DNA of 54,267 nt, the filler included, from Sluysia triapertura (lineage: Eukaryota), in the NCBI GenBank assembly GCA_046118255.1. It is 4 parts of 4 records of this genome, joined end to end, with 100 filler letters (N's around TTAATTAATTAA, not from the genome) between each part and the next. Parts side by side here need not be neighbours in the genome. Positions count along the whole stretch, not along the records: positions 25,548 to 39,308 come from JBJNIA010021736.1; 3 more parts are not named here. One strand, written 5' to 3'. This document shows, in pieces, positions 5,372-51,074 of the stretch (position 1 is the first letter of the stretch; each line of letters starts with the position of its first letter). Below the pieces are notes generated by a model. It did not search any database and was not told the origin of the DNA. It saw only the letters and a list, made by a program, of their open reading frames with translations. Position numbers and translations under genes: made by a program.

Positions 5372-5421
<50 letters not shown>

Positions 5422-22530: not shown

Positions 22531-22620
22531 AAATCCTAATAACACGTCCTTTAAAAATAAACGTAAATAGTGTTTAATAGGCAGACTGACTCTTAGATAT
22601 TTTGCAAATATAAGTTTAGG
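22531..22620 (+). ncRNA. Unclassified structured repeat family, copy A (terminal module only)
   Basis: aaatcctaataacacgtc...gtgtttaataggcagactgactcttagatattttg aligns with the terminal modules of copies B, C and D. Confidence 0.6.
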
Positions 22621-22933
22621 TTAAAGAAAGAAATGTGAATTATAATTGGATGAAGTTTCTTTTTAAAAATATTGTTAAGATATGTTTTATTGCTTAATTT
22701 ATGTCATTTAAATTTTATTTTAATATTATTAATTTTATTATATCAAATTTTTTAAAAAATTAATAAAATATTTAGGAATAATAATTAAAATAAAATAAAA
22801 ATATTTAGTAATTAAAAATCAAGTTAAATAAAATTATTAAAAAATTAAGAAAATATTAATTAAATATTCAGAAATAATAAATTTAGAATAAAGAATTTGT
22901 TTAAAATAATAAAATTTAATTAAAAGATTTTAA

Positions 22934-23555
22934 ATGGACGCCGATGGAAGAAAATTGTTATAATAGAGGTAAGGAAAATATCAAATTCATAACAAATTTT
23001 TAGAGTAATTTGGAAAAATAATTTTAACAAGGTTCCAGCACTCGATTATAAAAAATGAATCAAAATTCCATGATAATAAAGTAATTTTTTATTTATAAGT
23101 TTTTAACGTATTCATCCTAAGTGAAAATACAAAAATCCGACTTAAACTATCATTTATTTTTGTACCAACACCTTAAAGAGGGTTGGGTAATTTGTATCTA
23201 AAATCTTAATAATCAATTACGATTTGAATTATTTTAAATTCGTTATTGTTATTATACCTATTTTTGCACGTTGTACTATAATTTTTTTAACATTAAATAA
23301 TACATTAGTATCGAGTTTAATTTAGTTATTTCACTTCTAAATATTAGACTGTTTTCTAGCAACACCTTAATAAAGAGGTTGTGTAATTTAGTAAAATCCT
23401 AAAATTAAAATCTACTTGAGCTTATTAAGTTGTATTTTCCTTAGGCTCAAAATATTATAAATTTAGGTTATAAAATCCTAATGATACGTCTCCAACAGTG
23501 GTATAAAACGTATATATTAGGTGGACCGATCCCTCAGGTAAGATATTAAAAACAC
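22934..23555 (+). ncRNA. Unclassified structured repeat family, copy B
   Basis: CAACACCTTAA..GGTTG hairpins at 23166 and 23360; terminal module 23472-23545. Confidence 0.65.
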
Positions 23556-24559
23556 TAGCAATATAAATTTTAAATAAAATAGACGTTTTAGCAACGATTT
23601 TATTTTTCGTTAAAGTTTATGTGGTGGTTTCATTTATAGTTTATAATATTATTATTTTATACTTAGTTTGTGATATCGGTATTAAATTTCAAATTATAAA
23701 TGCAACATTTTACATTGTAAATGTCAGGCCAAATCAAAGTACTGATAAATACTTTGCTGATAAATAATTTTCTGCGCTAGTGCATCTCATTGAAATGATA
23801 ATAATGATAATGATAATAATAATAATAAATGATATATTAATTTATAGAACACTAATATATGCTATGAAAAAGTAATCAATAGTGCTATAATACATCATTC
23901 ATTATAATATTTCTGAAATAGAATTATTTCACAATCTTCAAGTGTTTTGATACTCTACGATAGCTAGGTGTACAATTATTATTGTTTATTCTCTACAAAT
24001 GTTATACATTAAATAAATGTATTCAAGATATATATTATAAAACATATTCGAGAATTATATTGATTTTGAGTAATATTCTCGCTTTTATTTGTTTGATTCA
24101 TTAAGATAAGATATGATCTGCGACCTTATTTTTATGCGGAAAATTATCCTTGTTGATTGGTATAGTAGTAATTAGAATTTTCGAATTTTCTGTATAAAAT
24201 TGAGTACAATATATCATTATTAAAATCTACATAAAGGAAGAGTTATTCTGGTAGTAACCTTATTAATAAATCTGGGAAACACTTTAATATTATCTATATA
24301 ATTATTAACTATAAGCAACCCAAAAAACGTAAACAAATTGTGCTTTGTAAGTAGTCTTTAAATTATGAAACGCATCAATAATTTCAAAATTTATTATTTG
24401 TACTATAATATGATAAATACTTTTGTAATTGTACAATTAGATTAATGTGACAAAGCACAGAATATTCAAACCGCCTTCATTTTTTGTGTAAAATTTTTAT
24501 ATTGTATTATTATATTTTAATATGACGGCATACAAATCAAAACCGATTGAATTGCAATA

Positions 24560-25378: not shown

Positions 25379-25447
25379 CCCCTTAACGCGCAAGCCCGAG
25401 TGTCACTCGGGCACATGTTACTGGCAAAATTGTGCATGCCCGAGTGT
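25379..25447 (+). mobile_element. piggyBac-like element end running into an assembly gap
   Basis: TTAA|CCCCTT terminus with subterminal repeats GCCCGAGTG...ACTCGGGC. Confidence 0.55.
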
Positions 25448-27189
25448 NNNNNNNNNNNNNNNNNNNNNNNNNNNNNNNNNNNNNNNNNNNNTTAATTAAT
25501 TAANNNNNNNNNNNNNNNNNNNNNNNNNNNNNNNNNNNNNNNNNNNNGTATTTAGTGAATAAATGTTGTGAATTGTTTGAGCTGGATGTAGAAGTTTATT
25601 AAGTTGGAAATGGTTGAGATATAAATTGATTTGTTGGTGTATATAAGTTAGTGAGGTGTTATGATCGTCAAATATTATTTTATGAGGTTTGTGATGTTGT
25701 GATTCTGAATTGTATTTTAATGAATTGTATTGTATTTTAATGAGATTAGATTTATAATTATTAGGTTTACATTTAAGTTATAGATGTTGACCACTACATT
25801 TTGAATAAGTTATAAATATTTCCAACTTGACAATTTCGATTTTGTTACACAAGTTTCATATTTGATTTTGAATTAATTTGATTGATATAAGTTGACATTT
25901 TGCATAAACCTTCGACCTGCGTAAAATGTTTTATTCGAAATTCTTGTTTTTGGAATATCATACAATATCGTAAAATAAATTAGAATTACAAGTAAATAAA
26001 TATGTCCAGAACCTTTTAAGAATGTTTTAATTAAATATCTACAAAAAATATGCGGAATTGAATATATGCATATCGCCCTCAAATATTATTTAACATTTAA
26101 ATATGAGTTATGCGTTTCAATTTCCTGTTATGTATTATTAAATGGAACCTGAGAAAAAGGATCTGTAGCAGGAATATCATATTAAATGCTTTCAAGAGCC
26201 ACAAATAAATTTTTTATTAAATATTAAATAATGTATTATTAAATTTATTAAATAATACATATTGTGATAACCACATTACTAAATAATAAGAAATTTAATG
26301 ATAGAAAATAGTAATAAAAACATCACTAATAATTCTATTTATATTTTTAGTACACTATTAATAATTTTAACTATATTTTATTTTAATTTCATATAAAAAT
26401 TTTAACTAATTGAAATAATTTATGAATTTTTTTGAATTTATAACGATGACAATTTTTATTTTTCAATTTATTTCTGTTAATATAAAATTTATAATTCCAT
26501 GACAATTTTATTTTTATCGATATTTATGGTTATACAACGGACACCTATATTAATTTAAGAAGTAAAGTAATTTATCAAAAAAAGATAACATCGATTTCAA
26601 GAGTAACAGATTAAATACAAATCTTTTCGAAGAACACTTTTACATACCGAAGTTATATTCGAAATATCGATGGAAGCTCTTCATATCTTGGTATTGTATC
26701 TTTATGAACGATTTAATCAAATTACTTATTTCATTTCTCTGCAATGTAGTAAGTTTTTATTAAATAGGAATTTTCACCTTCTTAAACTGTTTACTTAAAC
26801 TATAGATAATTTTTAAAAACTAGTACCAAACTGTGATTAAAATATAATTCAATATTAGGTAATCATCCTAATATTTTAAATTTATAGCCATAAGATATTG
26901 ATTGTAGCTTTTAATCTAGTTGATTAATTGTTCTTTGGATTTATCTTAAAATCATTTACCATTTGCAACTAAGATTATATATATATATATATGATTCTAT
27001 AAATATTTTATATTTTGTAAATTTTTTATTCTTATTACAATTAAACTTTAAAAAATAAAAAATATTAAATAAATTAAAAAAAATTTGTAAAATAAAAAAT
27101 ATTAAAAAAATATTAAATATTAAATAAATTTAATAGAGTTTAATAAAATTGATTTTTTAAATTTTGTTTTAACTAATTATTCTAACAAA

Positions 27190-27805
27190 ATGAAGAATCA
27201 GTAGAAATATGTAAGCTTAATTTAATTTTGAACGCAATGATTTTTCAGAAATTAATAAGGGATTTCTTGGAAAATTTTTTAGAATTGAAATTTTTGGAAC
27301 ATTCATCTTATTCATTTTTGGTTCTCCATGCACAAATAATTCACCGTAAGGGAATAATAAAATACAGGCAATATAATTTTTTCTTTTTATGCAACACCTT
27401 AAGAATGGTTGCGAAACTTATTACTAAACTTAAATAACAGCCAACCGTGGTTGTGCTTGTTAATAAAATTGTTATCATTATAATTTTTTATAACCCATTA
27501 AACTCTTTAAGCATTCTTAGTTGTAAATAATATACCTTACGTGAATTAATTTGTCTTTATTTACTAGAAGGGTTTAACAAATTTATTAAATTGATTTTTA
27601 AAGCAACACCTTAAGAATGGTTGTGAATTTTAACCTAATTAAATAATTTCCAGTAAGCAACTAATTCAGATATACGCATTATAAAGTGTAAGTTGACCTT
27701 AAAGTTTAAAAGTAATTAAAATCCTAATAGCACGTCTTCAACAGTAGTATAAACCATGTATATTAGGCGGACTGACTCTTTAAATATTTTGTAAGATTAA
27801 GTTCT
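27190..27805 (+). ncRNA. Unclassified structured repeat family, copy C
   Basis: GCAACACCTTAAGAATGGTTG occurs twice (27391, 27603), plus CCAACCGTGGTTG (27441) and the terminal module 27718-27803. Confidence 0.65.
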
Positions 27806-28459
27806 TTAATAATACACTTACAATATATAAAAACTTTGCAATTAACCAAAAAGTTTGTTATAAAGTAATTTATAAATCTTATTGCCCTAAAGTCTTATTA
27901 TTAGACCATACAGCGAGAAAATATCCTTATTAAATAAAACCATTTTTTAGATAATCGTACAGGATCATCATGTAATACGTAAAACGTGTCTTGTAGCCGA
28001 ACCCAGAGATTGAAAATTTATTATTCATTCCATTTCTGCATGTTTTAAATTAAGTCATATTTTATCCGAAAAATTTACTACTTTAAACTTTGAATTATAA
28101 TTTAAAGCCGCCTTATGGCCTGGCGAAACTTTTATTAATAAACTGAATACCGTGATCTCCCCCTGGCATTATAATTATTAATTATAATTATTCTTTAATC
28201 ATTTAATTAAAACTACACGTTAACTTCTACCTACGAGATAACTCGCAGTTGGCAGCGAACGTGTTAATTAAGGTCATAAATTTGAAAAAAATAAAGCATC
28301 AATGTATTTGTTAAACCTCATCATTTATCAATAAGAAACTATACTGGTTAATACGCTGATTAAAAATCGCATGACAATCACAAATTGTAGCAAATCTTTG
28401 ACAAATTACTATTATGATAGTGACGTGATTGATCTTGGACTTTTATTATAATCTAAAAA

Positions 28460-29204
28460 GGTATTTATGAATTTAATCTCACCTGCATTGGTATTGCTGT
28501 GGATTGGTAGAATACATTCATAGAATTGCTTAATTTGATTACAAAGATCTAAAATAGTTTTCATTCCTTTTTTACTACACGCTCATAGAACTGTTTCAAT
28601 AATTTAAGATGAATATCTTCGCCTTTATTAACACACCTCTAAGATTATTAATAAATTGTCCCTGAGTAACTTTATCAAGGAATTGTGATAATCAGTTTGA
28701 AGCATAATCAATACATATTCAAGTAAAATCAACAGTAATTCATTATAATAATTTGAATTACTTTTTTGGAAACTTTTTCTACAATTTTTTTGTCTGAAAA
28801 ATTAATTTCCCATGTTTAAATTTAATTTATTCGTTTCAATGTCACATATATCTTTACATTCATCAACTAAATTAGATTTTATACGATGTTTACTTGCTTC
28901 GACTTCTTTTATACATTGATCGTTGATATTAACGTTGATGTAACTTAGAACATGTAGCACAAGAAAAAATAATGGATAATTTTCTGTCTTAAATATTTCG
29001 TACAAGAGTATTAATGATACTAATAAATGCTCCGTAATACCATGTAACCGAACATGTACTTGCAATCGAAAAACTGCATAAACAAAGCAGAAAAATTGTT
29101 GATAAACAAGCTAAAAAAATATGAACGTTGATAAACTTTGAGTAGAAGACCACAGGTGATGTTTTAGGTAAAGCATTTAAATCAGAATTATCAGTTGAAT
29201 TCAT
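28460..29204 (-). pseudogene. Possible disrupted membrane-protein coding region
   Basis: ATG-initiated hydrophobic ORF (MNSTDNSD...HIFLACLSTIFLLCLC) with an overlapping frame-shifted ORF and stops. Family not recognised. Confidence 0.2.
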
Positions 29205-31899
29205 TGTAATAACATCTATTTAAGATTTCAAATTTTAAATACAAATTTATTATAATGAAAAAAATCTCTTTAGCTTCTTAAAAACGTCACTTATCTTTTT
29301 TAAACACAGTATTTAAACAAAGTATTTAAAGACAAAGGTAGATGCCAATTGCCACATAGCAAGTTAAGATCATTCAGATCACAACGAATATTGAATGTTA
29401 AGGAGGATGTAAAATGTTTAAGACTTATGTGATTTAAATTGAGGATTTTATTATTATGTTATGAGAGAAAGTTTTGTTATAAGCTGATTTTGTAATACAA
29501 TCATATGTAATGAGTTGGACAATCATATAAGTCACCAGCGGACAAATCATTCCATTACTTGGTGGCTAAAATCATAAGGTAATTATGATAAAGCTCGTGA
29601 TATCTGTTCGCAGATTTAATTCAACTAATATTATAATTTAGTTAATTTACGCATCTTTTATTACCTTATATTATAACTAGAATGTCATTGTATGTTATGT
29701 CGTCGTATTACAAAGAAATATTGTGCAACAGTGTTTCCTATAGTCTTCGTCTTCGTTTCCGTTATTTGTATTTCTTATTTGATTCTTCATCTTCACCATT
29801 GCCTTCTTGCTCACATGCAGAACTCCGAAAAAAATCATTCTTTATCATGTAGCGATAATTCCAATAAAGAAAGCACCGGCATTGATATTTATGGGTTAGT
29901 AAGACCTGTACTGAATTTACCGTCAGGTTTTACTAAGATGCACAAACAAAGTGACTTAAGTATCACAAATAGAAGTATTAAAATTTACAACCCTTTTCTT
30001 AAGAAGGTCTTTCCTAAAAACAAGTGTTAATAAATTTAATCAACATATAGACTTAATTTGTACATTATTTTCGTCGTTATTTTAGAAGCATGCATCATCC
30101 ACAAATTCGAACAAATGTCAAAACTTAAATCTTTTTTATGTTTCTCTGGATAAATTCCTTTCTGAAGGAACTATCGTCCTTTTTGAAAATTCTTTGCTTA
30201 AGCTCAATAAGTTGAAGAGTGAGCTTGAGACTAATCTCATCTTTTCTTTGTTAACAGATCCCGCATTACCTTAAATGGCTTCGACACTTTCTATGTAACT
30301 GTTGTTCTGGAGTGGTAAATGTAACACTTATTATTAAGGGGACATCCCATTTTCTGCTGGTGCAAGATTCCATCTTTCCTCATTGTCAGAATAAATTACC
30401 AAAGCAGAATAACCAGAATGATACAATAATAATTATTATTAATACTAATTAAACTTAATAAAATTAAAACACTTAATTGAAATTAATAAAATTGAATATT
30501 TTCTTTTAGATCAAAAGTATTTGACATGTTTGCTGCCAGCTACGAGTTACTTCATAAGTATAAGTTTGTTTTTGTGTCGCTCGGCAGATAATTAATAAAA
30601 TATTTAACTAATTGAAAAAATTGATAAAAAAGCAATATTTACGTTTATTTTGCTAGATTTGTCGATCATAAATATTGATTTTGTTAACATGTAACTTAGT
30701 AATATTTATTAATCAATTATAATTTTACTTGTTTAATCTGTATAAAAGCTAAAATAAAAGCACTCAAATCACAAGTGAAAATTCTTACGGAAATATAAAA
30801 AATTTCTTCGATCCATTTCTTCTAAGAGCACAGTCCAATACGACTTACGTTCTATTTTGCTTCTAGTAATAACTGTGAAAGTATAGTGAAAAATATACGT
30901 AAATGAAAGTGGAGATTTGAGTTTAAGAAACAGTAAAAGTGTGAAAGGGAAAAGTAATAAATAATAAAGATAATATAATAATAATAATTCATAAGTATAA
31001 GAATAAATTAATGCGAAGACTAACGTTGTAATACGTTAATCAATTATATAAGATAGTTTAAATAATATCAATTAAAAATACAAATAAATAGTTTAATAAA
31101 TTTTAAAGTTCAAGTCGGATTTAAATTAATATTTTGATTTCAATGTAAGTTAAGTCTGCAATATAAAAGCACATTTAGTAGAAAAGACGGATTTTATGTA
31201 ACTTCAACTCAAGCAATTATACTAAACAATTATACAAGTAACGGTAACAATATAACGCACATCTTCAACATTTTCTGATAGACTCAAATTTCCACAACCG
31301 ATATAAATTTAGTTTAATAATCCAATTTTATTATGGTGGATTCCAAATGCCCAAAATCATTCATACTTTGTATGTTTATCATGTATTTCTAATATATACT
31401 GAATTCAATTAACCATAAACAAATCAATTAAAAGGATATTATATGGCAACACGAAGTTATCGATACAATCAACTAAACTAGAAATATATGTTATTACTGA
31501 GATTTGGTCGATCTATTATTACCAAATTACTTGATCGTAAGCTGTAAAGGATTGTTTGAATTCAAATTGCATCAAGTTAAAATAACCTAGGAATTAACGA
31601 ATAGATTTTCATATACAGTATTATTGGATTAAAAGTAAGCCTTTTATATTCTTCGATTATTCTAATAACCTAGAAATAAATTCTCATTAGTGATGTTATA
31701 GAAGAAATCCTATAGAAAATAATTCACTTATTATATGAAAAATTTTAAAGTTAAATTAATATTACAAAATACAAGTGTGATTTTAAATTATACAATAATA
31801 ATCCACGAAATATTCGTGTTTAATTCTTACCTTTAGAAAATTCTCAAAATCCGAAATGCAAAATCAATAAAACATTCGCCAGTCACATCATTTACTTTG

Positions 31900-32950
31900 A
31901 CGAACTTCACACATCATTGATCATAAGTGACTTAAAGGCTTATCCCAAAGGTCAGGATTCTATAATCATCGCAACAGCTAGAAGAACATTGAAAATCTCT
32001 ATTTTTGTGAGGCACGTATCCAGATTTAGAGACAATCTACCAGATAATTACATAGTTAGAATTGTAGATGAATTTCCCACATCTTTCTTTTTTTCAATTA
32101 CCAAAAAGTAAATTAAATATAAAGTACTAAATAGTCGAATCCAGGACAAATTAAATAAATGGCAAAACGAATTACTTTCACTCATTTGCCTTATACAGCG
32201 ATGTTGAACAAAGATAATCTCGTATTGTCCATTCGCCTTATTATAAAATGTTCCATTCACTATAAACATTGAAACCATGCATCCGAATAAATAATTTCTT
32301 TACAATCATTCACGGAATGAAGGAATATGTTTTGAAAGAGGCCAAGGATATCTGACATTCACCAATATTGGTTTACGTCTTTGTATAAAACGTTTGTTTC
32401 TTTACTTCCAGACCTGATTATTAATACGTTCCACATTCTATAAGGTTGGTACTAACCTTGTTTCGTTTGACTCCTTTGATCCAGTCACACGGCGAGAAAA
32501 GCGATGAAACTGCTATATCCTTTTCTACCACTAGCTTCATGTTTACAAACATACGATCTTATTGCACTTTTTGATCTAATCCTTGCCAGAGATCCATCAT
32601 TTTTACCAAAGATAGTGGAATGCTCATATGTTCATAATAATGATTCAATCTGTCATTCAACTTCTTGCTGAACAGACAATTCATGCAATAAATTTAATTT
32701 TATAACACCTATACATTTTAAGCATAAACTTTCATCATCACAAACAATACGTGCTTCATCAAAAAATCAAATACGTACGCAAAAATCACAGAAACGTAAT
32801 GAAGTATAAACAAAATATAAACACACAGTTGCACACCATCCCAAAAATCATGAGCCTACTCCTCCACTAGATGACGAAGGTGCCACAGCAAGATAGATTT
32901 GGATGATGTTTGCGATACTGAAGAACAGATAATCTAAAACAATTGGTCAG
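31900..32950 (+). mobile_element. Decayed retroelement, possibly an L1/Tx1-clade ORF2 fragment
   Basis: 'KVLNSRIQDKLNKWQNELLSLICLIQ' resembles the post-RT KIxxKLxxWxxxxLSxxGR motif; many stops. Confidence 0.35.
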
Positions 32951-33344
32951 ACTTTGGGAGATGAATTGTTTGGATGTGTCGATAACATAATCATGCTAGA
33001 CTTTAACTCTGATTATATGTGATGTCATCATCTTTTAATTATAATTAGTTGTATAATTCTCTATTTTATCTCGTTCAGTTTATGTTCGTTTTAAAATTGG
33101 TGACTAATTTTTCCAAAGGAGAAAGTTACATGCCAGTAAGGCTAACGTGATTAAATAAATCATGATATAACCGCGATAATAATATTTAAACATAACGTGA
33201 TAATAATAAGTTAAATTAAATAATAATAATTTATATTGAAATTAGATAATGAAAAATAATAATATTAAATAATTAATAATAAATTAATTTAAAAAAATAA
33301 TAATAATTCATAGAATATTGAAGTTAAAATTATTGTTTATTTCT

Positions 33345-34115
33345 AAACGGAAATTCAAACAATAACAGATGGTAAAAAGCTAATATAAATAATGATCGTA
33401 TGATTAATAACTACCACAACTGGTTTATCAAATATTTAGCTCAATTTTTGAATAATTGGGAAAACGTCCATAATCTTGAAAACATACCAACAGTACTTAT
33501 GTTCTGGAAATAATAATACTTGAAAATTAAATCACGCCAACTTTTTGATTTAAGTTTTGTATCTCTAAGAGGTACTTAAAATCAACGTAATATCTTTTTA
33601 TAAACTTCATCTGACCATTTTAAAGAGGTCAATAAAATATAACTAAAATTTGATTTATCAATTAAAGTTTTAACTTTAATCGAGCAAAATTATTAAACGC
33701 TTTATTATTATCTTGTACACCTTAGTTTGTTAAAAATTATTTTTTATTATTCTAATACGTATTGCCATGAGCGTTATTTAATATTTTGAGATAAAATCAA
33801 AATCCCATAGTTTTAAAATCATAAAATAATTACATTATCTGTTTTAAAGGGTTGTTTTAAATAAACCCATAAATTATACTTTGTCAGTCCTGTTTCATAT
33901 AAGGACTTAAATTACTTTATAAATAAACTAAAACACAAAAATAAAATTTTTAATAGAATTCGAGAACTATTGAAGGAATTAGCAAAATAATAATTAAATA
34001 GTGCAATTAGTTTTAAGTGACCTTCTTAACTTTTACATTTTCTTTATGAACCCTGTGAACAAGCCCTTAAGTAATTCTTGGATCACAAGCGGACTTACCG
34101 AACTTTTAAGTTTAA
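33345..34115 (+). ncRNA. Divergent member (copy F) of the structured repeat family
   Basis: A-rich leader, serial short hairpins (tgacc..ggtca, gggtt..aaccc, agtcc..ggact) and terminal TGTGA-CAAG/CTTG-TCACA-AGCGGACTTA with the same topology as copies B-D. Confidence 0.4.
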
Positions 34116-35078
34116 TTCAAAGAAACTACAATAATATTGATCAAATGAATTTAACAGCAAACTCACAAGATAATCGATACCCAAATTTGATTAATCAAAT
34201 AATTCGGCAATCAATTCATTATTTAAATTAAATAATTTAATTTAAACAATTTCTGCAAGATACAATTTACTTCCTTTTAAAGTTAGGTGAATTTTAATGT
34301 ATATTTATTTTTAGAACCTACTAAGAACCCACTGAGAATACCAGAGCTCTAAGTTGTTTCATTTAGTTTTTCAAGTTTTGATTAATTTATATTTTTAATT
34401 TTTTTATATATTAATCATGATTCTTAGAGTACAAAAAATCGAGAAGCGTTTTACAGAATTACTGAAAATGCAATTAGAGAATATCCTGAAGTTTCGTTTA
34501 TAAATTGCATTCACACGACTTTTTTTAAATCTAACAAACATTTTAATAAAATAATATAAATTAATTTACACTTAGATAGATCACGTTTCAGAAATTTAAT
34601 TACTATTTAAACAAGAATTCACCCCTTTTTGATATTTTTGATTAATTGATGTACTAAAGAGAAATTTCGCAGTTTTATTTTTAGCTTATCATGTTAATAC
34701 TTCCTGAACCATATTATTGAAATGATTGATATTAAGAATATAATTAGCACTAGGACACATCTTCAAACTCATCACTTTAAAACTATTTTAAATATTACTG
34801 AATTTCTCACTTAACTTATTATCTCTTAAATTTGTAAATAGTGTAACAATTATTACATAAAGGTAACTTTATTATAAATGTAACCGTTATTTTTATTTTA
34901 AAATTTCTATTTTTCTCTGCATTAAAAAAAGAGAGCATTTGTTTAGTTTTCTGATGTATTGAGTGCATCAATTTTATTAATTTGGAAATAAAATTGAAAA
35001 GGTTAATCAGCGGCGCACTATTAAATTAAATTATGTTAATTTAAAATTGAATTCGTCTAATTAAATATTCAAAAATAC

Positions 35079-36482
35079 TTGTTCGACAAGGTCTCCTGAT
35101 TTACTAGGTTCGATTAATGAACTTGTATCTTCATTATTTGCTACACGCATCATAAGTTCTCCATCTCGATCCATTTCCAAACTTCCATTTTTTAAGTACT
35201 GTTTTCTCATATAATCCAATTTATCAAAATCTTCTTCACCGTCATATACAACATTATCAATACCGGCTTCATCTCCCATTTCTTCTATATTTAATAAAAC
35301 CGGACTATATGAATTATGATCATAAATTTCCCGTCCGGTTTCTTTATCTTCCTTCATAACAATTGATTCTTCAATAATATTAGGTTCTTCTTTAACAAAT
35401 TCAGCACCACTTGGGAATAAAGCATCTACTGTTAAACCTTGTTCCATTTTTAATTTATTTAAATTAGCTTGTAAATTAGAAAGATGGCGTTGATGTAAGC
35501 GACGACGTGCTATGATTACTCGGGCTTTCCTAACAAAAAATTCATAAAAATCTAAATTTGTGTGTTTCGTGTCACCAGTTTCAATTACAGATTTAGCTTT
35601 AGAAACCAAACTCTCAGCTTCTTCTATGCTGCTTTCTTCTACTTCCTAAAAAAACATTTTTAGTATATATTAATAGCAAACTTTAAATAATTCATCTATA
35701 GTGTCATCAGATAAATCCGGATTTATTGATACGTTTGGTTCCAATCTTTCTATTTCATTTTCCGTTATTGCTAAAACATCTTCCCAATATTGTGTATTTT
35801 TTCCGGGTTCCATATTACGATAATATTCATTAATGTCTACTCTCAAATCTTCCAGATCAGTTCGATTAAGACCCAATATAAATTCAGTAGGCTCATGATT
35901 TATAGCATCAACTTGTGCAGAATTTAAGTTTTCTTCTTCACATACATATTCAATCAATAAATCTATCGGCTTTGCACGACCATTAGATATACGAATTTTT
36001 GATCTGGAACGAGCTTGTTCAATGTCAAAATGAGAATCAGATTTTCTTGCAAGATATGTCTCAGCCTCTTTTGCTCTTTGTATTAAATCTTGTTCAAGCA
36101 TTCTTTCTTCTTTAATCCTTTCATGCTCACGAATTCTTTTTTGAATATTTTCTAATTCTTCCTTACGTTCTTCTATTGATTTATTTATTTGCTGTTTATT
36201 CTTTTTCCAAACAAATTTATCTGTTAAATTTGGATCCAAGAATGGGTTATTGTCATTACTGTACCCAAATATTTCTGTATTATTGTCTATACCGAGTCTA
36301 TTGCGAAATCCTCTGGAATCATAATTGTCATTTCTAGGAATTTTCTTTTCATAATTTATAAAGTCTTCATTTATTTCGTCATTATCTGAATATTTATGTT
36401 TGGAATTTTTATCGTTACTGTGCTCACATTCTTTGGATCGATCTCTATGACGTTTTTTGGTTTTTTTATGCTCACTCTTCAT
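35079..36482 (-). CDS. CACTIN: Cactin (spliceosome-associated), N-terminal and mid domain; exons 35682-36482 and 35079-35645
   Basis: 'FGYSNDNNPFLDPNLTDKFVWKK', 'FDIEQARSRSKIRISNGRAKPIDLL', 'HEP', 'DLEDLRVDI', 'YWED', 'ARRRLHQRH'. 36-nt GT-AG intron at 35646-35681. Confidence 0.93.
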
Positions 36483-36785
36483 ACCCAATTATTAAAACAA
36501 ACAAAAATACAAATTGAATTGAATACAAAATAGAATTAGAATATGCATTTAAAAAATTAAATTAATAATATATAATTTAATACACGCTAATATCTGCAAT
36601 ACATTAAGTATTCAAAATCATATACATTTTAAACATTAAAGTTATAATAATTTAATAAATTAAGAATTAATTTTAAAAATTATTTAAATACAAAATTAAG
36701 GCTGTCATAATTACCTATATCATTATAAATTTTTTTTTAAATATTTTTAATATTTGTTTTAATAATAACTTCAGTATAATTTCAA
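36483..36785. promoter_or_regulatory. Short, extremely AT-rich divergent intergenic region (likely bidirectional promoter)
   Basis: About 300 bp between the cactin ATG (36482, -) and the RPB11 ATG (36786, +). Confidence 0.65.
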
Positions 36786-37185
36786 ATGTCGAATATACCT
36801 GATAAATTTGAGTCCTTCTTATTAGCGGAAGGAGAAAAAAAGTAGTTTCAATATTGAATTTTTTAATTATATAGAGTAATAATTGAAAGTGAATTGAAAG
36901 TAACTAATGCAGCAATATTTACTATTAATAAAGAAGATCACACAATAGGTCATATGTTAACAAGGTAGATTTATTACTGTAATAAACTTTAATAGTCAAT
37001 TATTGCGTCATCCGAAAGTTCGGTTTGCTGGATATAAAGCACCTCATCCACTTGAACACAGCATAATAATAAGAGTTCAAACGACATCAGATACAAGTCC
37101 TCTTGAAGTATTCAATGATTCCATTACAGATTTGATTAGTGAGTTGTCAAGTATGGAAGAACAGTTAAAAGAATATCTAAAATGA
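36786..37185 (+). CDS. POLR2J: RNA polymerase II subunit RPB11; exons 36786-36841, 36875-36964, 36996-37185
   Basis: Spliced '[19 protein letters not shown]|[30 protein letters not shown]|[29 protein letters not shown]...'. Introns are 33 and 31 nt; AATAAA at about 37206. Confidence 0.97.
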
Positions 37186-37985
37186 ATTATTTGTATATGA
37201 GTATCAATAAATTATTTAAATTGAATTATATTTGTTCAAGTATTTTTAATAAGACTATTGAATTATGAATAACTTTTCTTATGTAAAATAATTGTAATTC
37301 TTTGCTAAAACAATAAATGAATAGTCGTATTTAATTTCAAGCGCTTTCTTTGATATTAAGTAATTTTTTCAAACTTGCACTATCTACTTAATTTAGTGTT
37401 TTAAAAATTGGCTAAACTTCTTGTAAATTGTAATATTAAAAATAAGTATTCTTATTTAAGCTGTAATTATGTGCTGTTTAAAAAGATTCAGAGTAGTTGA
37501 GGTAGTGATTATAAATTAACAGAAGTTAATAATGGCATGATGTAAGATAGAGATATTGCCTCTACGTGCGTGATTACTGTAAATAGTAGATCCTGTCGAA
37601 TGTCTGACGTACAAAAAATTTTTAATTACTCAGTAAATGAGGGTACAACTTATACAATAATTAAAACCAAAAATTCACAACTTTTATTAACTATTAAATA
37701 TTACAATTTGGCTTACAAAATCTAAAGAGTAATAAAAATAGAATGAAATTTAATTGTAAAGTTTGTTAAAATTAAAAGTAATGACTAGTACTTAACTTAT
37801 GATTAAATAGGATTTTTCATGTATTTTACTCCTCAATATATCGGGAAACCTTACACTTAAATGAAAAATATTGGGATTTTTAGTAAATTTTAGGATATTA
37901 AACTTAAGCAAAATTATTATCGACTTAATAGAAATAAATTACTTTTAACATAGAACTGATATAGGATTCATTAAAATAATAATCA

Positions 37986-38117
37986 AATCAAAATGGCCAT
38001 TTTGATTACACTGATGCTAGTTTATATACTAGTCATGAGCCAATGAAAATCGATGGAATGTTCTAGAATATTCTAGAAGCTTCTATTCTATTTTTAGAAG
38101 CTAATTTTCTTTTTTGG
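37986..38117 (-). promoter_or_regulatory. Heat-shock promoter cassette, copy 1 (6x nGAAn HSE, CCAAT box, TATA, YY1-like motif)
   Basis: gGAAt gTTCt aGAAt aTTCt aGAAg cTTCt at 38055-38084; CCAAT at 38040-38044; TATATAAA on the minus strand at 38021-38028; GCCATTTT palindrome at 37986-38007. Confidence 0.75.
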
Positions 38118-38183
38118 AAGGTAATTATTTTATAAGTGATTTTAATTGATTTTAAATAATAAAGGTGTTTTTAACTAAAACTC

Positions 38184-38830
38184 AACTTACCTACAAAATA
38201 TCTAAGGAGTTGGTCTACCCAATATATACGATTTATACCACTATTGAAGACGTACTATTAGGATTTTTATAACTTAACTTAATTAACTTTAGATAAACAC
38301 TTTGCTTATGACTATGTCTAATTACTTAGGACTCCTTAATTAATTTATGATACAACTCTTTACGAGGTGTTGTTTAATTTAAATTATATATTTTATAATT
38401 ACACAACCCGTATTAAGTTGTTGCTTTGAAATATATTAATCTTTTAAAAGATTACGCAAACCGTGTATTAAGGTGTTGCTTAACAAAACGAATTTTAAAA
38501 GTTTATTAAATTAAAAGACTCTAATACTCTTAAAGTGTATTAACGACAAAGAAAAAACTAATCAAAAAAATCTATAATAACGATAAAAGTTTAGTTAACT
38601 ACTCAACCTCGGTTGGCAGTTTCAGAAGATTTTAAAATAAGTTTCGCAGCCCGTATTAAGGACTTTCATCAAAATAAAAATTATTTTAAGTCAATTTTAC
38701 TATTCCCTTATTAAGGTGAATAGATAAACCCTAACAATAAAAAACTTTATAAAAATTTGATCTAAAAACTTGTGATTTTATGTTAAAAAGCTTACCTATT
38801 TTATAAAATTGATTAACTCCATGTGTCTTC
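38184..38830 (-). ncRNA. Unclassified structured repeat family, copy D
   Basis: The reverse complement carries five CAAC..GTTG-type hairpins (38353-38665) and the terminal module 38184-38268. Confidence 0.65.
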
Positions 38831-38880
38831 TATTTATTAAATTGATTCATTTAAAGAAAAATAAAGAAATAATTTAATTT

Positions 38881-39308
38881 TTGATTTTATATGTAGGTTT
38901 TCAAAGTTGTAAATCTTATCACTCCCAAGCTTCTGGTCTCACTGCCCATAATTGTAGACATAAATTAAATGATCCAACACGTTTTTACTGTTCTAAAAAC
39001 CATAGAGGAAAAACTTGTCCGAATAAAGAAAACGAACAGTTATACAGGTGTGTAAAATGTCATAATGACTTTAATCATCCAGCTAATTCATATAAATCTC
39101 CAAAATATATGGAAATTTTAAAAGATAGGAAAAATTATGAATTTCAATCAAAAAACTAAGATTGTATAAAAAGTCTGAAAAAAATACAAAAAAGGATTCT
39201 ATTAAATTTGGTATTCAAAATGTTTGGTCTATTCAAAATAAAGCTATGGAAATTACTGAGATCATTTATGAAAATAACATTGATATATTTTGTTTAATAG
39301 AAACTTGG
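38881..39308 (+). mobile_element. LINE fragment: ORF1 zinc-knuckle end plus ORF2 APE endonuclease start, running into a gap
   Basis: 'CSKNHRGKTC...RCVKC...HPANSYKSPKY' followed by 'IKFGIQNVWSIQNK...IIYENNIDIFCLIETW'. Confidence 0.85.
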
Positions 39309-40972
39309 NNNNNNNNNNNNNNNNNNNNNNNNNNNNNNNNNNNNNNNNNNNNTTAATTAATTAANNNNNNNNNNNNNNNNNNNNNNNNNNNNNNNNNNNN
39401 NNNNNNNNGTTTATTTTACTTCTGAGTACAAGGATTTGACTACAGTCTCTTGGCATTGATGGCACATTATTGTATTATCATCTATTAGTGCTGTATTTAG
39501 TCTCGAATCAATACCTCTGTAATTGTGGGTCACAATTTCATTTAATATTGAATTTCATTCTAATTTTGCACTGGATTTACTTCTACGGTCCCCCTGTGAT
39601 ATATGAAATATACATATGGCGACGTATTCTTAGGATTTTTTGTGCAAATTTATATCTGAAGAAGATCGTATGTAATTTTTTGCTAATTGTGTTTTCTTTC
39701 TTTCACTTATTTAGCTTAAATTAATGACAAACAAAAACCTTATTTTACAAACTTATTATAACTTCTACTCGTTAACTTTTAGGTTATTCAACGAAAACTG
39801 CCAAAGTATATTCTTATTGCACGGTCAAACATAAACTTTTTACTATAAACGTTTTAATATAACTTTTTATATTTTAAAAAGAGTTTATCTCTAGCTTAAA
39901 TTAGAGTTGAAACATGGAACAATCTAACAATTTTAAATTTCTTAGTCACATGTTTAATAAGATCAACTTATGTCATTACACTGTGCTTGTGTTAAATTCT
40001 ATTAAAATATGTATCATCTAAAAAAATTACCCCAGTAAATGAATTGCATTTTTATAAATTTAATAAAGACATGTAAATGATATTTCATGAAAATTAGAAA
40101 ATTTATTTTTTACACTTATTACAAATAATATAGTGTATATTGTACATCGTACAGTAATGACCTTTAGTCTTGGTATTTTTAATCGCTTCAATAAGAAAAT
40201 ATCTTAATCTTGTCTGGTCATGTTTTCAATATCATTTGCAGTATTGCAAAATGTTAAAAATAGATGTTCGACTTTATACCCGCTGCGTCCAGCAGTTTAA
40301 GTCCTTCGACGAACTGAGTAGTTTTGCATAGTTGATCAAAATATAGTATTGCATAGCGTCTGCTTTTTTAGTTTCTGGACAGACGATTGGGTATAAAACT
40401 AATTTTTATCAAGGAAGATAGATGGGTTAATGGGACGATTAATATTTTTTCTCGAAGTACCAACCATAGTCATATTACATTTCGAGAGCGTTTTTGATGT
40501 AGTTGTGCTGATGTTCCATGGATTGGTTTCGATAAATTCCCAAAAATCAGATAATCTGAATTTGAAGTATTAATTTAATTTCATATTTTTCCAGTTAGTT
40601 GGGAATAGCCATTGTAAACTTACATTTGTCCCGGAATTTTAATTCACAAAACTGTGTTGAATTTATTTATCGATTTTATTTTGATATATTAATTTTTTTG
40701 TTCACCAATCCAAATTGTGCTTTAATAAATAGTAATCAAACTAAAAATAGATATTTTGATCGAAAGACAAACTCGGTAATATTGTCAAATATAAGTAAAT
40801 AATGGTGAATTTCACATTTTCTACCTTGTCATATCCATTGTGTTTGTAATGCTTTTGTAATACGTTTTTATTTTTGTCAGAATTTTTGAAGTAATATATA
40901 ATGGATAAACATACGAAAGACAGACTTACGTTTTACTGTAATTGATATTCGAACATTATTTTCTGAATTTAG

Positions 40973-43914: not shown

Positions 43915-46261
43915 CTCAGTTTTAATCCCAGTCAGTAAAGCGTCCGTTATACTTCCAATAACGGTAATAAAGTCGAATATATTCCAATAATCCATAAAAT
44001 AATTCTAATAAATAAATGAATAAAATTAATTATTTTCACAGATTAAACTAATAAATTTAATGAAATTATTTATCCCCTGTTTCAAAACTATAGGACAGCC
44101 CCAATTTTTGTTGTATATACAAACACAATTTATATTATAACAAATCAACAATACTTTTTGATAAATAAAACACGAATAAACTAATACTTATTTATAGTTT
44201 CCAATTTTAGTACACTTTTTATTACTATATTGCATTTAGTTAAATAAATTTCGTTTCAAAAGTATAGGACACATTATACAAACTTTTTATTTAAAAGATT
44301 CTAAAACGTATTGTACAAAATTAGTATTTTATTGATGTTCCTGAGTTTTCCAATACCTCTAAACACATTTTGCTAATCAGATTAATCAATGTATTTACAC
44401 TTTTTATTTCAATATTTTCCCAATTATCCAATATTGCATTTTTAACTCAGATATATTGTTATACTGTTTTCCTTGATTGATAATTGAGACCATAAATTTT
44501 CTATTGTTTTCATCTTTCTGATCACTCTAACACTTTTAATCCATATTGATTTAACTAATTAAGTCTTGCTTAGATCGGTGACAAGTAGCGTTATCCTTCT
44601 GAAAGATGACAGAAAGTTTGACATGCGGAACTACTACTTCTTTTATCAAATCATAATACTTATCTCCATTAAGAGTTGATGGAACCACACGTAAAGCTAG
44701 CTTTTTATCACAAATTATGATTACCCATACCATAACAAATTCTCTTAGAAAATATTTCTTTTGAATCCTTTTATAATTTCCAATAGTATTTTAAACCATC
44801 AGGATCATCCAAATATTCTCATCTGAGAACATTATCGTGGTCCAGTCAGTATGATTATTAATATAATATTCTGATTCTTTCGAACTCACAAAAATATTTT
44901 AAAATAGGACTTGAAAAGATTATTTTATGAGTTTCTTTGAAAAGAATGACAACCATTTTAAATTCTATTTCAATCTAATTCACTTATATTTTTTGGCCTA
45001 TTTAAAATAGCTTTTGAAACGGGCACTGACGATTAATAAACAAATTATATAATAAATGTATATAGATTATCAACTCAATATTAGAGTTCTAAGAAACTTT
45101 AATTAAAATTAATTTTAATGAATTTTAACGACCTGTTGAAAAATAGTCGGTGAAAGTGAAAAGTAAAATAATTTAAGTGATATTTTATATATCGTGTGTA
45201 AGGTTACAAAAACTTATAAATAAAAATATATCTGGCAATAAATAAATGATCAGATTCGTTTATAACAATAAACGAATAACTGGGTTAATTTATGATAGAA
45301 AATGATCTCAATATTGCTCCAAAATTATCAAAATAAATAGTTCGATTGAATAAATTTATAATATTCAAATAATACTTTTGCCAAAATTGTTAATTTTTGA
45401 TCGGGATTTTCGTAATAATAATTTTATTATTAATTATTACTATTACCATATCATTGTTATTTTGTGCATTATTATTGCAAGATTTTTATGATAAATTAAA
45501 CTTAAACTTACAAATTATCTAGAGGCTTTAGTCCACTTAATAAGCACGGTTTATGTCCATTAAGATGAGGTCATATTAGTGTTTTTTGTAGAATGTCAGA
45601 AAACAATCAAAGAAAACTCAACCTTGTAAATTATCGAGCAATCAATACGTACTTAATAAAATTTGTAATTTAAACTAGCCGTTATAGTTTAATTGATTTT
45701 AAAGAGTTACAAATTGAGCTAGGCTTCTTAGGGTCAGAAGTTTATATGAATGATTAAATAAGAATTAAATAAATGCAAATTCCTAAAACCTATTAGTAAA
45801 AGTCAAAATGACAATTAAATCTAATATACATAACTAAATTAATTAATTATGCTTAAGAGATATAATCCCTTAGTGTTTAAGATTTTAAAATTGATTTTGA
45901 CCTAGCCTTTATGGTCTAGAGTACATAAAAATAAATCTAAGTCGTATTTTAGAATTCAACTTTTTAAGTTAGAATTAAAATAATCTTACTTTGATCATAA
46001 ATCGCCAAAAATCCACTGATGATTAATTTTTATTTGTGTAATGGCGTCCGAATTTCATTATGTATTTATTATTGGTTATTTTTCTTTTTTGTATTAATTG
46101 GTTGATTTAAACAAAAATTATTTTATTTTAAAATTTTACATTTATTTGTTAGTTTTACTTTTAATTAATTATTTATTTTTATTATTAAATTTTAATATAA
46201 TACAAATATAATTTTATCAATACACAATTATAATTAAAATTGTAACACAATTAATACTTAA

Positions 46262-46306
<45 letters not shown>

Positions 46307-49300
46307 CATTAGATATTTATTTTAAAAATATTTATAGGCAATACTATATCAAACCTTAGGATTTAAACCTATCATTTTCAAAATACATTCCAATGTAAAC
46401 AATGTAATAAATCCATAATTCAAATATTGAAGAGCTTCGTGATAATTGCTGTACGATAACGATTTCTCAAGCTGTAATTTAATATATTCTTCATTGTCTA
46501 ATTTTGATGGATCTAATTCTTTTGAATAATACTAAAACAATATTAGGAAAATTAAATTTAATAACAATTTAACTATTTATGTTAGTAAGTAAAATATTTA
46601 AAACTGAAAATTGGATTATAAATTATAAAAATCGCACTTACTCGAAGCATCAAAACAATTGTGTTTAATGAAATCATTATTAAAATAAATATTTCAAATG
46701 GTGTAGATACAACCAAACACCATATACGATATTGAAGTGAAGGTTTATTTGATGGTACGAAGCGTATTCTTGGTTGTGCTTGAACAGCAAAATCTATACA
46801 TAGTTTTTGATTTTTATCTATACCTTGATCACGAAATGATTTTTGACCTTCTTCTTGAAATGTGATAATAATCAAAGCTACGAATATATTGACAAAAAAG
46901 AATGGGAATATAATGAAAAATATTATATAAAACACTGCCATTTCACTTCGGTAATTATATATTGGTCCTTTGTTGATCATGGTAGCATCCATAGAGTGGC
47001 GAAGAACACTTTAATAATAATAATAATTATAATAATAATGATAATAATGTCAAGTTGTCATCACAAACATATAAAATCTTATTTTTCAAAAAAGAAAATT
47101 GGCTTCTAAAAATACAGTAGAAGCTTCTAGAATATTCTAGAACATTCAATCGAATCTCATTGGCTGATGACTAGTACATAAACTAGCATCAATTAAATGA
47201 GAATCGCCATTTTGAAGCTAGTCGCCATTTGCAATTTTTGTTTGGTAAAATTTTGCGGCGATATTTTTGGAGCAATTGTTAAACTCAAATTTTGGGAAAT
47301 ATCCGCACAGTCACAACTATTTAATTTAATTTCATTTGTTGGAAATTGATGTAATTTTAGAATTTGAGATTATGAAATCAATGTAATTTTTTAAGTGCCG
47401 ATACATTTAGGAGTTAATACACACTCAAATTGTTAATACACGCTCTCGGAGCTTTAATCCTTTTTACTGTCTTCTGTTTTTTATTATTACTCCAAGATCT
47501 TTTGGTATTTCGTGAATAAAGTTGATATTGTATAGGATATAGAATGATGTTATTAAAATTTCATCATTTGAGCATTTGTTAAAGACCCTAAACAACAGAA
47601 CATTTATTTTCAGATAAAATATTAGCTTATTTAGTTACAGGAACGCCCTCTCTGCTCAAAAATATTTTGTACTAGGTGAAGTATTAGCAAAAAACCACCA
47701 TAATAATGATGATAATAATAGTAACATATATTAATTTATACATTACCAATATCTACTACAAAATAAATACTTAAAAGAAATGTATTAAAACATTCATAAT
47801 TTTCCAGTATTTTGACACATTCTGGGAAATGTTTGTATATTTTGAAACATAACCAATTATTTATCATATCCCTAACTTCTTCTACAGATCTCGGATTTTT
47901 CTCTTACATTTATTGATAATAAACTTCAATTTCCACCCTTTTTTATATAAGTGAAGAATATTATGTCTCATTTTATTATATCTACTTTTCTTATTATAAT
48001 ATCACCACCACCATCATCATTATTATTATTATTATTTTGGAATATGAATCATATTTATACATTTATCATCTTTAATAAATGTCAAGGTTATTCGTCATTT
48101 GAATTAAGCAATTACAGTTATTGTACTTTAACATTATTTGTAGGATATATTTGAGCTAAGTATGAAATATAATATGATCATTTTAATACAGCAAGTTCTG
48201 TGAAATTGAACATGAGTAATCAACCAAAGTTATTATATCGTTCTGGTATGGTTAGTATATACTTGTCATTATTATCGATTACTGTATAAAACCAAAACTA
48301 AAACTTAAATTATTTATCTTAACGAATTATTATTTTTTGAATAATTTTTTATTATTAAAAAATCGATAATTTTGAATTATTATTTTATTCATTTACAGTT
48401 TGTAGTTTATAACATATTATTACTAACGACTGATTTAATACTAACTTCAGTTTTGCATTTTCAAGTGTAATTAGTATAAAGTAATTTTTAATTATAATAA
48501 TCATAATGAATATTAAAATAATAATTAATTTCGAATCAGTGTTTAATTCAGTATTGTGTTTGAAGTTTAAAATTTGTACGAAATTTATAATTAGCTGTTG
48601 GAAATCAGAAAATTATAAAATATTTAAATTATTACATTGTTAAAATAGTATTAATTATAATTGAAGTTTCTTTTGAAATAATTACAATTTCAGAACCATA
48701 AAATAAATAAGACCAAAATAAACATCACTTAGTGAAGCAATTCTCAAATAAGATTGGAATATCACAAGGATCCAATTACAATGAAGTTAATATTAATCAA
48801 TTATTAACATCGTTAGTACTTATTACTTTTATTATGATATCAAAAAATTAAATACCCAATGCAACAAATGCATCTTTTGTAATAAATTTTCTAATGTTTG
48901 ATATTTTCTTTAGTATTCAAAATACTAATATCAATAATTCTTAATAAAGTTTTGAAACAAAAATCGAACAAAGTACATTTAATAATTAATTTAGTTATTT
49001 TGACACATTGAACCATTCTTGAGCACTACCGTAACTGAAACTGATAGTGTAATCAGGAATAATATTGGCGATTTTTCGCTTTAGTTGTTAATCAGTTCAG
49101 GAAGTTGTACATAGGAGAATACTAATGATGTAAATTATTAATTATACATTAAAATGTAAATTTTATCTACTTATTATATTAATCAAATAAAATTTATCAA
49201 AATTAACAAACTCAAGCCATCCTTCAGTAGTAGTGACTGTGAACAAAGTGACAAAACTGTATAAAATATTATCAAAATGAAAACAAAAACGCATCCAATT

Positions 49301-49445: not shown

Positions 49446-49913
49446 CAGTAGTGGCCAAATTATTACCCTAAATATTAGTAATTGTGGGTAAACACAGAGA
49501 AAATTGTGATATTTGTTGTGATATTTAAGTAAAGTCTGACACCTTTAATATAATTAATTATAAATTTTTGACAATAATTTGTCAGTGATACCACAGTAAG
49601 ATAAATCAATTATTGTAATCAATCTATTTCGTATTTAGTTCAAATCTTAATCATCCAATAATTTCCTGATCCTTAGTGGCATGCCACGGATGAGCTTTGG
49701 GCACAAGTCTTTGATCTCGTCATCCTGATGCCATATTTTTATCATGGTTTCAATAAGTTCCGTACTGGTGGTTGGTTTATGAGTAAGAACTTTCCTTTTG
49801 ACAATCTCACACAGATTTTTTATGGGATTCATATGACTGGAGGGTAGCAGCTTAACACCATGATCATCGAGAAACATTTTTCCTGTTTTAGTATAATAAT
49901 TTGACCACCACTG
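49446..49913 (-). mobile_element. Internally deleted Tc1-like element
   Basis: TIRs CAGTAGTGGCCAAATTATTA / revcomp CAGTGGTGGTCAAATTATTA with TA flanks. Retains the transposase C-terminus 'MNPIKNLCEIVKRKV...LIRGMPLRI'. Confidence 0.88.
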
Positions 49914-51074
49914 TATAATCATTGTAATTACAAAACCTAAACATTTCATACTCGTACAACATCAAAGTTAATGGTTTCATTTTAAACAGATGCATTTGAA
50001 AAGTCAGGAAATCCAAACAATTTTCACGTAACATATTACTAGAAAATAACTAGTGAAATTTACACTGACAAGTAGGCGGAAAGTTTACAAAAATTTAATG
50101 AACCATATAAGTCTCTTCATGATAATATAAATAAACGTTTCAGAAAAGTACAAGATCGAGTATCTTGTTTGTGTTGAATTTGATATGAATATATAGGATA
50201 TGCATGGAGACTACTTGGAATATTCGGAACTTTTGTTGGTGAAAATAAAAATGAAGCAGTGTTATTCTACCTTACCAGACAATATGCTAAATATTTCTAT
50301 GTTAGTTTTGTAATCGGTGATGAATATTTTTCATACAAAATACAACGTGAAGTTGATTTTTCTACGTTCAAATGACTCATCAAATTCTAACAGATGCTAT
50401 TGAAATTTGAGATGAAAAATGAATGTAGATACCTGTCTGAAATGTATAACTGTAAAATTGATTTTTATCAAGTATTCTTTGATGAACAATATCGAATTGC
50501 ACTTAAAAGGTAAACTAAATTTTGTCAGATATTGTTATTTAGCTGACACTTGTTTAGCTGATACCTGTTTAGATATTTTTGTAATGCTAGCAAATTCATC
50601 TCACACTTATGAGGATCTAAATTATTCGATATTAAAATCATACGCACCTGATGTTAATACGACATCACTAGTATTTTGTAGCGGTGATATAATCACAGTT
50701 TTACAATTTGAAAAATCTTTTTCGTCAAAATTTTGTACAAGATGTAAACCTGGAGATGATGTATGTAATACCGAACCGAATATTATTAGCATTAAAAGAC
50801 CGATGTTGTAGTATTATAAAGTTATAAGTTTATCTAGTAGTTTTGTTTGGAGAATGCACGATATTGTATTTTAAAATCTTACGATGTATCGTGTGTTCAC
50901 GAAGTTATGGATAGGTCAATTAGATTGTTTTCAAAATTTGACTACTAATTTACCTTATGTAGAACTGAAACGTTCGTCATACAGATATTCAGTGATTTGT
51001 TTGTTAAAACAAGGCCATTTTTGTGATAAAATTCAACATTTTTCAAGGATAGTATGAAACTATTAATCAGGATG

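Follow-up and report, generated by a model that had tools for sequence, protein, structure and literature searches.

The minus strand of this stretch carries, between positions 38345 and 38720, a row of bulged hairpins separated by AT-rich spacers, and the question is what such an array belongs to and why its stems are kept. The original prediction took the hairpins to be multivalent protein-binding or packaging stem-loops lying upstream of a pseudoknot. The whole stretch of 54,267 nt (the window) was analysed; it comes from a compact, AT-rich animal genome of about 26% GC and holds genes for cactin, an SLC4 transporter, a furin-like repeat protein, a CaV channel, a DEAD helicase, RPB11 and a CXC-domain protein, together with Tc5/DDE transposase relics. 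Neither CaV nor cactin has a close named relative: named or distant hits reached at most 68% for CaV and at most 47% for cactin, and two unnamed cactins stood at 57-59%. Because the three identical 100-nt linkers (11603-11702, 25448-25547 and 39309-39408, each N44, a 12-base all-frame stop and N44) may be artificial contig joins, distances across them were not relied on. The hairpins proved to belong to a non-coding element some 600 nt long, which consists of a leading hairpin, the array, a 70-nt core and a short tail. This structured repeat family is larger than the original prediction saw, and it is most likely an unusually built mobile element. Since the element is dispersed through the genome at high copy number, the most likely role of the hairpins lies in the copying of the repeat itself, and we tentatively favor, at a probability of about 45%, a headless, non-autonomous, LINE-dependent retroposon in which they would act as protein docking sites.

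Four full copies (B, C, D and F) and two core-only copies (A and E) were present in the window, giving six cores in 54 kb, and the full copies were collinear over about 500-600 nt. Copy B (23108..23560, plus strand) has hairpins at 23108, 23165 and 23359 and its core at 23473-23540, and copy C (27339..27812, plus strand) has hairpins at 27339, 27391, 27435 and 27603 and its core at 27719-27787. Copy F, a full but diverged copy missed earlier, lies at about 45430-45980 on the minus strand (45488..45975 in the list of parts), in sense orientation within an intron of the CaV channel gene, between one exon that ends at 46354 and another that begins near 44004. Its core is 61-68% identical to those of B, C and D, and its hairpin F1 (45901-45920, minus strand) has a different stem, UCUAG/CUAGG. 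The core-only copies are A (22531..22628, plus strand) and E (39545..39638, minus strand); a profile of B, C and D recovered A, E and F at E values of 4e-6, 2e-4 and 2e-3, and a covariance model built from A-E recovered F at 4e-5. Pairwise core identity ranged from 50 to 81%. B, C and D appear intergenic, with no Pfam-supported exons flanking them as one gene, and D is convergent with RPB11. A candidate seventh core at 37812-37880 was detected by neither the profile nor the covariance model, and a covariance-model match at 34032 (E 0.015) was, by eye, coding on the other strand; both were left out of the counts.

Copy D, on the minus strand, was dissected feature by feature. The leading hairpin D0 (38700..38723) has a 6-bp lower stem, a bulged A and a CCUU/AAGG upper stem. 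D1 (38648..38664) is degenerate, having lost CAAC and pairing in a shifted register without the bulge, and three of its letters are unlike the majority of the sequencing run. D2 (38597..38621) is a short CAAC/GUUG-type hairpin homologous in slot to C2, and the outer stems of the two, read from their folds, differ by one A-U/U-A swap. A further weak hairpin, missed earlier, lies at 38522..38542. D3 (38456..38479) has one C.U mismatch in the consensus register, and it is followed by D4 (38401..38424) and by D5 (38353..38372), both with upper stems altered relative to the strict pattern. The core and its short tail occupy 38172..38266, where a long hairpin (P1+P2) with possible alternative folds is followed by GTAAG at 38186-38190. 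Thus all five positions at which hairpins had been predicted in D do carry hairpins, but none of the five matches the strict pattern. Where slots are filled, the hairpins recur every 47-56 nt; Tandem Repeats Finder detected no array in D. Private letters that break stems in D, compared with the run majority, stand at 38418, 38649 and 38666.

The frequency of the hairpin design was then compared with chance. The consensus CAACACCTTAA, with at most one mismatch, matched six times in the window against 1.42 expected, and 0 of 100 shuffles reached six. The matches lie at 23166, 23360, 27392 and 27604 on the plus strand and at 38413 and 38468 on the minus strand, so that the B and C hairpins predicted at these places are present and above chance. 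Each of the six is followed, 110-330 nt downstream and on its own strand, by a core, as the proposed co-occurrence with the downstream module would have it. The pattern CAAC-N(0-1)-CC-N(1-12)-GGTTG matched five times against 0.05 expected, four times within B and C and once (24772) outside any element. A descriptor blind to stem sequence (four Watson-Crick pairs, A, CC, loop, GG) gave five matches against 0.9 +/- 0.8 in 40 shuffles, four of them inside elements and with three different stem types. The leading ATTC...GAAT-type hairpin, reported earlier for B, C and D, is there in all three, and F has one too.

The lower stems of 12 hand-anchored hairpins paired at 55 of 60 positions, compared with 35.2 +/- 3.1 after shuffling (0 of 5,000 shuffles reached the observed value), and when 11 hairpins were aligned by MAFFT without adjustment, 76.6% of positions paired versus 64.6% in shuffles (0 of 500); these stem-pair shuffles ignore the relatedness of the copies, and the swaps represent only a few independent events. 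Relatedness is a caveat on covariation statistics in the part of PMC11234323 drawn on here. A further hairpin of the same design, with U-A instead of C-G as the top pair of its lower stem, was found at the loose end of one contig of sequencing run X2. Non-Watson-Crick pairs in the lower stems comprised six G.U and one A.C, and this excess of G.U over A.C fixes the folding strand as the one originally proposed. CpG decay is unlikely as the source of the G.U pairs because CpG is undepleted in the window (observed/expected 1.01). Taken with the stem-blind descriptor, the pairing tests support a repeated, strand-biased hairpin design in which pairing is held through different stem sequences.

The claim that stems are kept while loops vary held for the stems, but on the 5′ side of the loop the segment bulge-CC-UUAA is conserved in 7-8 of 8 hairpins at each of seven positions, on par with the stems, and variation is confined to the 3′ part. 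This constant face is reasonably read as a plausible, putative protein-recognition site. The spacers, described as unrelated, are so within one copy (z <=1.4 for the slot pairs compared in D and in C), whereas same-slot spacers are homologous between copies, with z of 3.4-4.5 in 5 of 13 pairs and 0-2.5 in the other eight. For whole elements, folding z was -2.5 for B, +0.35 for C, -2.3 for D and -2.9 for F. Control windows folded as well in 3 of 138 cases for F, 4 of 138 for D, 27 of 138 for B and 61 of 138 for C, indicating that B and C are not unusual by fold density. In F, a dense row of hairpins is kept with other sequences.

For the core, comparison of the copies supports a predicted long hairpin better than the pseudoknot that had been placed downstream of the array. 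The long hairpin is 83% paired, has two pairs changed on both sides, and its covariation score was met by 7 of 500 shuffles. The pseudoknot requires another inner hairpin; it is 87% paired, and its overall score was met by 117 of 500 shuffles. No compensatory changes were seen in its crossing helix, where none of four pairs is changed on both sides and the fourth pair fails in three of the six copies; at 38215, moreover, half the sequencing depth has a letter that breaks one pseudoknot pair unless compensated. The alternative folds of the core are mutually exclusive and each is 83-90% paired. Isolated cores are no more stable than shuffles, and on the opposite strand most of them fold at least as well. 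On the 3′ side of the core, a small hairpin with 72% pairing was not above shuffles and was set aside.

The abundance of the element was estimated from contigs of sequencing runs, of which four (X1-X4) out of six listed were compared with the window. One contig of run X1 (1,122 nt) is identical to window positions 36550-37671, over RPB11, indicating that X1 comes from the same organism, and the median single-copy depth in X1 was 22 (nine single-copy bins). Summed contig depth does not equal copy number and may be inflated several-fold where contigs overlap; with that limit, it peaked at 69,023 in the core, about 3,100 times single-copy depth, and at 125,403 in hairpin D4 (position 38403), about 5,600 times. 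The 122 contigs with the majority letter at the core peak and the 101 contigs at D4 are firmer lower bounds. We estimate a dispersed repeat of roughly hundreds to thousands of copies. The D spacer bins had summed depths of 1,600-3,100, or 70-140 times single-copy; that these lie far below the core and D4 suggests subfamilies. Among the 14 positions listed (40 of 160 rows), D differs from the X1 majority letter at 13 and one is split half and half, and the majority letters mostly lead back towards the B/C form. Contig joints at which hairpin slots are left out or duplicated (38247-38382, 38402-38465 and 38422-38398, among 15 of 91 joints listed) occur at single-copy depth, indicating that the number of hairpins varies among other copies. 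Forty X1 contigs leave the alignment at 38266, the 5′ end of the core. Upstream of the core, A and E show no detectable similarity (z <=1.3), and the linkers are poorly conserved among full copies as well; because the full-copy linkers have also diverged, these loose ends need not be truncations. Runs X2-X4 show the X1 profile again at a depth 300 to 8,000 times lower and are not independent support. Around the candidate seventh core, the stretch 37746-37929 has a summed depth of about 5,400 in X1 and a core-like start at 37880 (minus strand), and is possibly a distant core relative or a separate repeat.

In the favored retroposon model, the element would spread via an RNA intermediate with a reverse transcriptase borrowed from a resident LINE-type element. 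The RNA would fold into a row of bulged hairpins about 50-56 nt apart, whose constant face (bulged A, CC and UUAA) may offer several docking sites to a partner ORF1/ORF2 protein or to a host RNA-binding protein, and the 3′ core would be the recognition and start point of reverse transcription. Early stops of reverse transcription are proposed to give rise to the core-only copies A and E, and selection on source copies would preserve the fold in the different subfamilies despite the decay of single copies. Without a Pol III head, transcription would probably be by Pol II from the AT-rich upstream tracts. The model is supported by the high copy number, the dispersal on both strands (intergenic and in an intron), the varying number of hairpins, the core-only copies and the pairing of the stems, upheld by differing sequences on a single strand. 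The core-only copies make up two of six, though the linkers of full copies diverge too. On the other hand, three of the four full copies lie directly behind non-homologous, promoter-like low-GC tracts, which retroposition would not copy; the dense hairpin row of F and the re-pairing of D1 look more like selection on single copies; and the stem covariation rests on few independent events. A search for target-site duplications gave only low-complexity 9-12-nt matches in the four copies, which are old and have uncertain ends, and no poly(A) or common simple-repeat tail was found beyond about 50 nt, F continuing into AAT-rich DNA. LINE sequence in the window is limited to an ORF1-like fragment with no demonstrated matching 3′ end. 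It is a CCHC zinc-knuckle fragment (Atlas match score 0.91, zf-CCHC on 10% of members, no Pfam match), probably a LINE ORF1 relic and thus a candidate source of the reverse transcriptase. The fragment adjoins D at 38878-39300 (plus strand), and its summed depth of 137,000-263,000 in X1 marks a very abundant family.

Several known mobile elements resemble this one in part. SINEs are defined in SINEBase (PMC3531059), and going by the portion of that source used here, the element is like SINEs and other LINE-dependent retroposons in being shorter than 1 kb, non-coding, interspersed and high-copy, with subfamilies and internal duplications and deletions. Unlike them, it has no head of tRNA, 7SL or 5S origin and no A and B boxes in the proper places, shows no simple-repeat tail or target-site duplication in the copies analysed, and has a promoter-like tract upstream (same portion of PMC3531059). 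Membership among SINEs fails because the Pol III head is absent: ARAGORN and Rfam gave nothing within the elements, no A box followed by a B box was found at either end, and the sole B-box-like stretch in a core (copy B, two mismatches) is at the 3′ end. Runs of T4 or longer number 11-18 per full copy on the folding strand. Bulged 3′ stem-loops are known recognition signals of LINEs and SINEs, as in the 3′ tails of the stringent-type LINEs UnaL2 and ZfL2 (PMC1636434 and PMC4176376), and the hairpins here may work in a similar way. There the protein reads both stem and loop of a bulged stem-loop, a mode of recognition that would account for the conservation of one face in an RNA that moves; but UnaL2 and ZfL2, in these excerpts, have a single 3′-terminal hairpin, whereas here 3-7 hairpins stand upstream of a separate core with no LINE sequence link. 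If the element is a retroposon, it would be an unusual one that lacks a Pol III head but has both a conserved core and several hairpins in a multivalent array, and its natural variants would map what the partner reverse transcriptase or ORF1 protein reads, extending the single-hairpin model of fish LINEs.

The strongest competitor, possible but rather unlikely, is a host multigene family of structured non-coding RNAs, in which each full copy would be a Pol II unit and the core-only or decayed copies would be pseudogenes. Each unit would have an AT-rich promoter and a start near ACGC, and would give a 600-nt hairpin-array RNA, acting as a scaffold or sponge and perhaps processed at GTAAG. The upstream context speaks for it. 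Tracts of about 300 nt precede B (22621..22942, plus strand, 10% GC), C (26931..27236, plus strand, 11% GC) and F (46043..46350, minus strand, 10% GC), each ending at G(G/A)ACGC(C/A) some 70-170 nt before the first hairpin. When upstream GC was ranked over the 85 ACGC sites of the window, the three lowest values preceded B, F and C. The three tracts have no detectable mutual homology (z <=1.2), as would suit separate promoters of a gene family, and they resemble the tract between cactin and RPB11. Two of eight low-GC tracts sit between divergent protein genes, at 33151-33370 (by ORF reading) and at 36541-36790 (cactin/RPB11), which also favors a promoter role. An AT-rich insertion preference, however, could yield an identical upstream context, and the region upstream of D is interrupted by the CCHC fragment. 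The persistence of structure at 60-68% core identity fits a gene family as well, and so does a donor-like GTAAG within about 25 nt after the core in four of four full copies, against a background of 3% per 35-nt window; but GTAAG occurs elsewhere in the elements too, and common descent may explain it in three of the four post-core cases. A copy number in the hundreds to thousands would be unusually large for a family of RNA genes, stem-breaking changes are present in single copies, and no Rfam match was obtained. The retroposon and gene-family readings can be combined, with few source genes and many retrocopies.

Dictyostelid Class I RNAs are multicopy, lineage-specific non-coding RNAs with an upstream element, and their expression has been shown. 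They provide a model for the gene-family account as lineage-restricted structured RNAs, but they are far shorter and fewer than the element here. A more ambitious form of that account, which we consider unlikely, would be a new animal RNA class, with hundreds to thousands of 600-nt RNAs made independently from their own promoters, a modular array of operator-like hairpins bound by a single RNA-binding protein, and a 3′ core that belongs to no known family and either switches between two states or processes itself. If the copies are transcribed host genes, they would be an undescribed and very large structured RNA family in an animal; under either reading, retroposon or gene family, the copies provide a deep natural alignment for covariation.

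The operator comparison of the original prediction was also examined. The MS2 operator hairpin has a single bulged A on the 5′ side, a short upper stem and the loop consensus ANYA. The likeness stood as to geometry, the hairpins sharing the 5′ bulged A and the short upper stem, but an upper stem of 2 bp capped by a tetraloop occurs in C0 alone, and the C0 loop lacks ANYA. In most units the loop is longer, or a triloop closes an upper stem of 4 bp, and no viral relative was found. The suggested packaging role found no backing either, since exact-pattern scans of viral and metagenome collections gave no locus with a core. Exact core patterns had no match in viral, metagenome and prokaryote collections, which are poor in animal DNA, and the exact hairpin pattern matched 34 metagenome loci and one viral locus in collections likewise poor in animal DNA. 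As 0 of these 35 have a core, they were treated as chance or unrelated hairpins. Eight GC-rich, related metagenome loci (L001, L005, L012, L015, L022, L027, L031 and L034) show a terminator-like hairpin with a T run, a chance match to the pattern. At gathering level, Rfam reported only a tRNA at 10504 in the window; sub-threshold matches (four in 21500-40500 and five in copy D) were all far below the cut-offs. Judged by their general features, a telomerase template, an SL RNA, an intron-like element, an snRNA and a Fanzor guide scaffold gave no consistent fit. A literature search that left most subscription journals outside its range found no description of the element.

It is improbable that the element is a rolling-circle (Helitron or Helentron) or other single-stranded-DNA element, with hairpins formed in single-stranded DNA or serving as protein sites on DNA. 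Such a DNA route could bring the upstream tracts along, the AT-rich context and the lack of target-site duplications in the four copies would suit it, and G.T wobbles are tolerated in single-stranded DNA also. According to the sections of PMC4067079 used, DINE-1/HINE Helentrons are similarly abundant and non-coding, with variable central (internal) repeats and a T-rich context. Unlike what these sections describe, the elements show no 11-15-bp subterminal inverted repeats, no terminal 3′ palindrome and no CTRR end, a weak test given their ill-defined ends, and the described HINE structure has no internal array of covarying bulged stems. The terminal inverted repeats of a MITE or cut-and-paste DNA transposon were looked for as well, and no shared or high-identity inverted ends were found in the four regions among the five longest pairs listed for each.

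Least probable is a solo LTR, Penelope-type pseudo-LTR or retrozyme-like unit with the core as an undescribed self-cleaving or switching RNA cut at its 5′ end: the promoter-like tract followed by a structured region, the mutually exclusive core folds, the core-only copies beginning at about one position, and the place of A, which stands where a terminal repeat would, immediately before B's tract, would agree with it, but A is nearer to C (75%) than to B (63%), so that A and B are not one insertion. Direct repeats at the flanks and an internal coding region are also absent, the folding strand of the six copies has no exact CUGANGA hammerhead core, and Rfam gave no ribozyme at E values up to 5-10. 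Animal retrozymes and Penelope pseudo-LTRs are non-autonomous, structured, dispersed elements in the part of bioRxiv 10.64898/2026.07.22.740005 consulted, and the present element differs from the retrozymes described there in having no hammerhead core and no tandem monomers. The exact CUGANGA motif gave an isolated match on the opposite strand of F only, with no Rfam hit for a hammerhead, and HDV-like, twister, pistol, hatchet and twister-sister ribozymes had no Rfam match in the elements. Twister-sister-like ribozymes have a 5x6 internal loop in the portion of PMC11620745 used, so the core, whose internal loop is 1x2, does not fit them. A comparison by hand with the HDV topology found P2/P3 not contiguous, and P4 and J4/2 absent.

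Other repeats and relics were observed in the window. Two tRNA-like sequences (5214-5378 and 10484-10656, minus strand), 75% alike and with flanks shared on both sides, are a probable tRNA-derived SINE, apparently separate from the hairpin element. A Tc5/DDE transposase relic was identified by Pfam at 24651-25155 (plus strand), and Tc1/mariner-like relics without a Pfam match were recognised by eye at 7812-8339 and 49650-49961 (both minus strand). RPB11 (36787-37186, plus strand) was read with introns of only 31-33 nt, and it has a 250-nt low-GC divergent promoter region in common with cactin. Another dispersed repeat occurs at 3-235 and 44157-44403 (plus strand), 85% identical, with the second copy in the CaV intron. 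A 150-nt dispersed repeat, at 37988-38137 (plus strand) and 47067-47215 (minus strand), is 87% identical between its copies and has an internal palindrome and motifs that we take to resemble YY1 and CCAAT sites. It abuts the 3′ end of D, and its summed depth in X1, 617,672, was the highest in the stretch compared.
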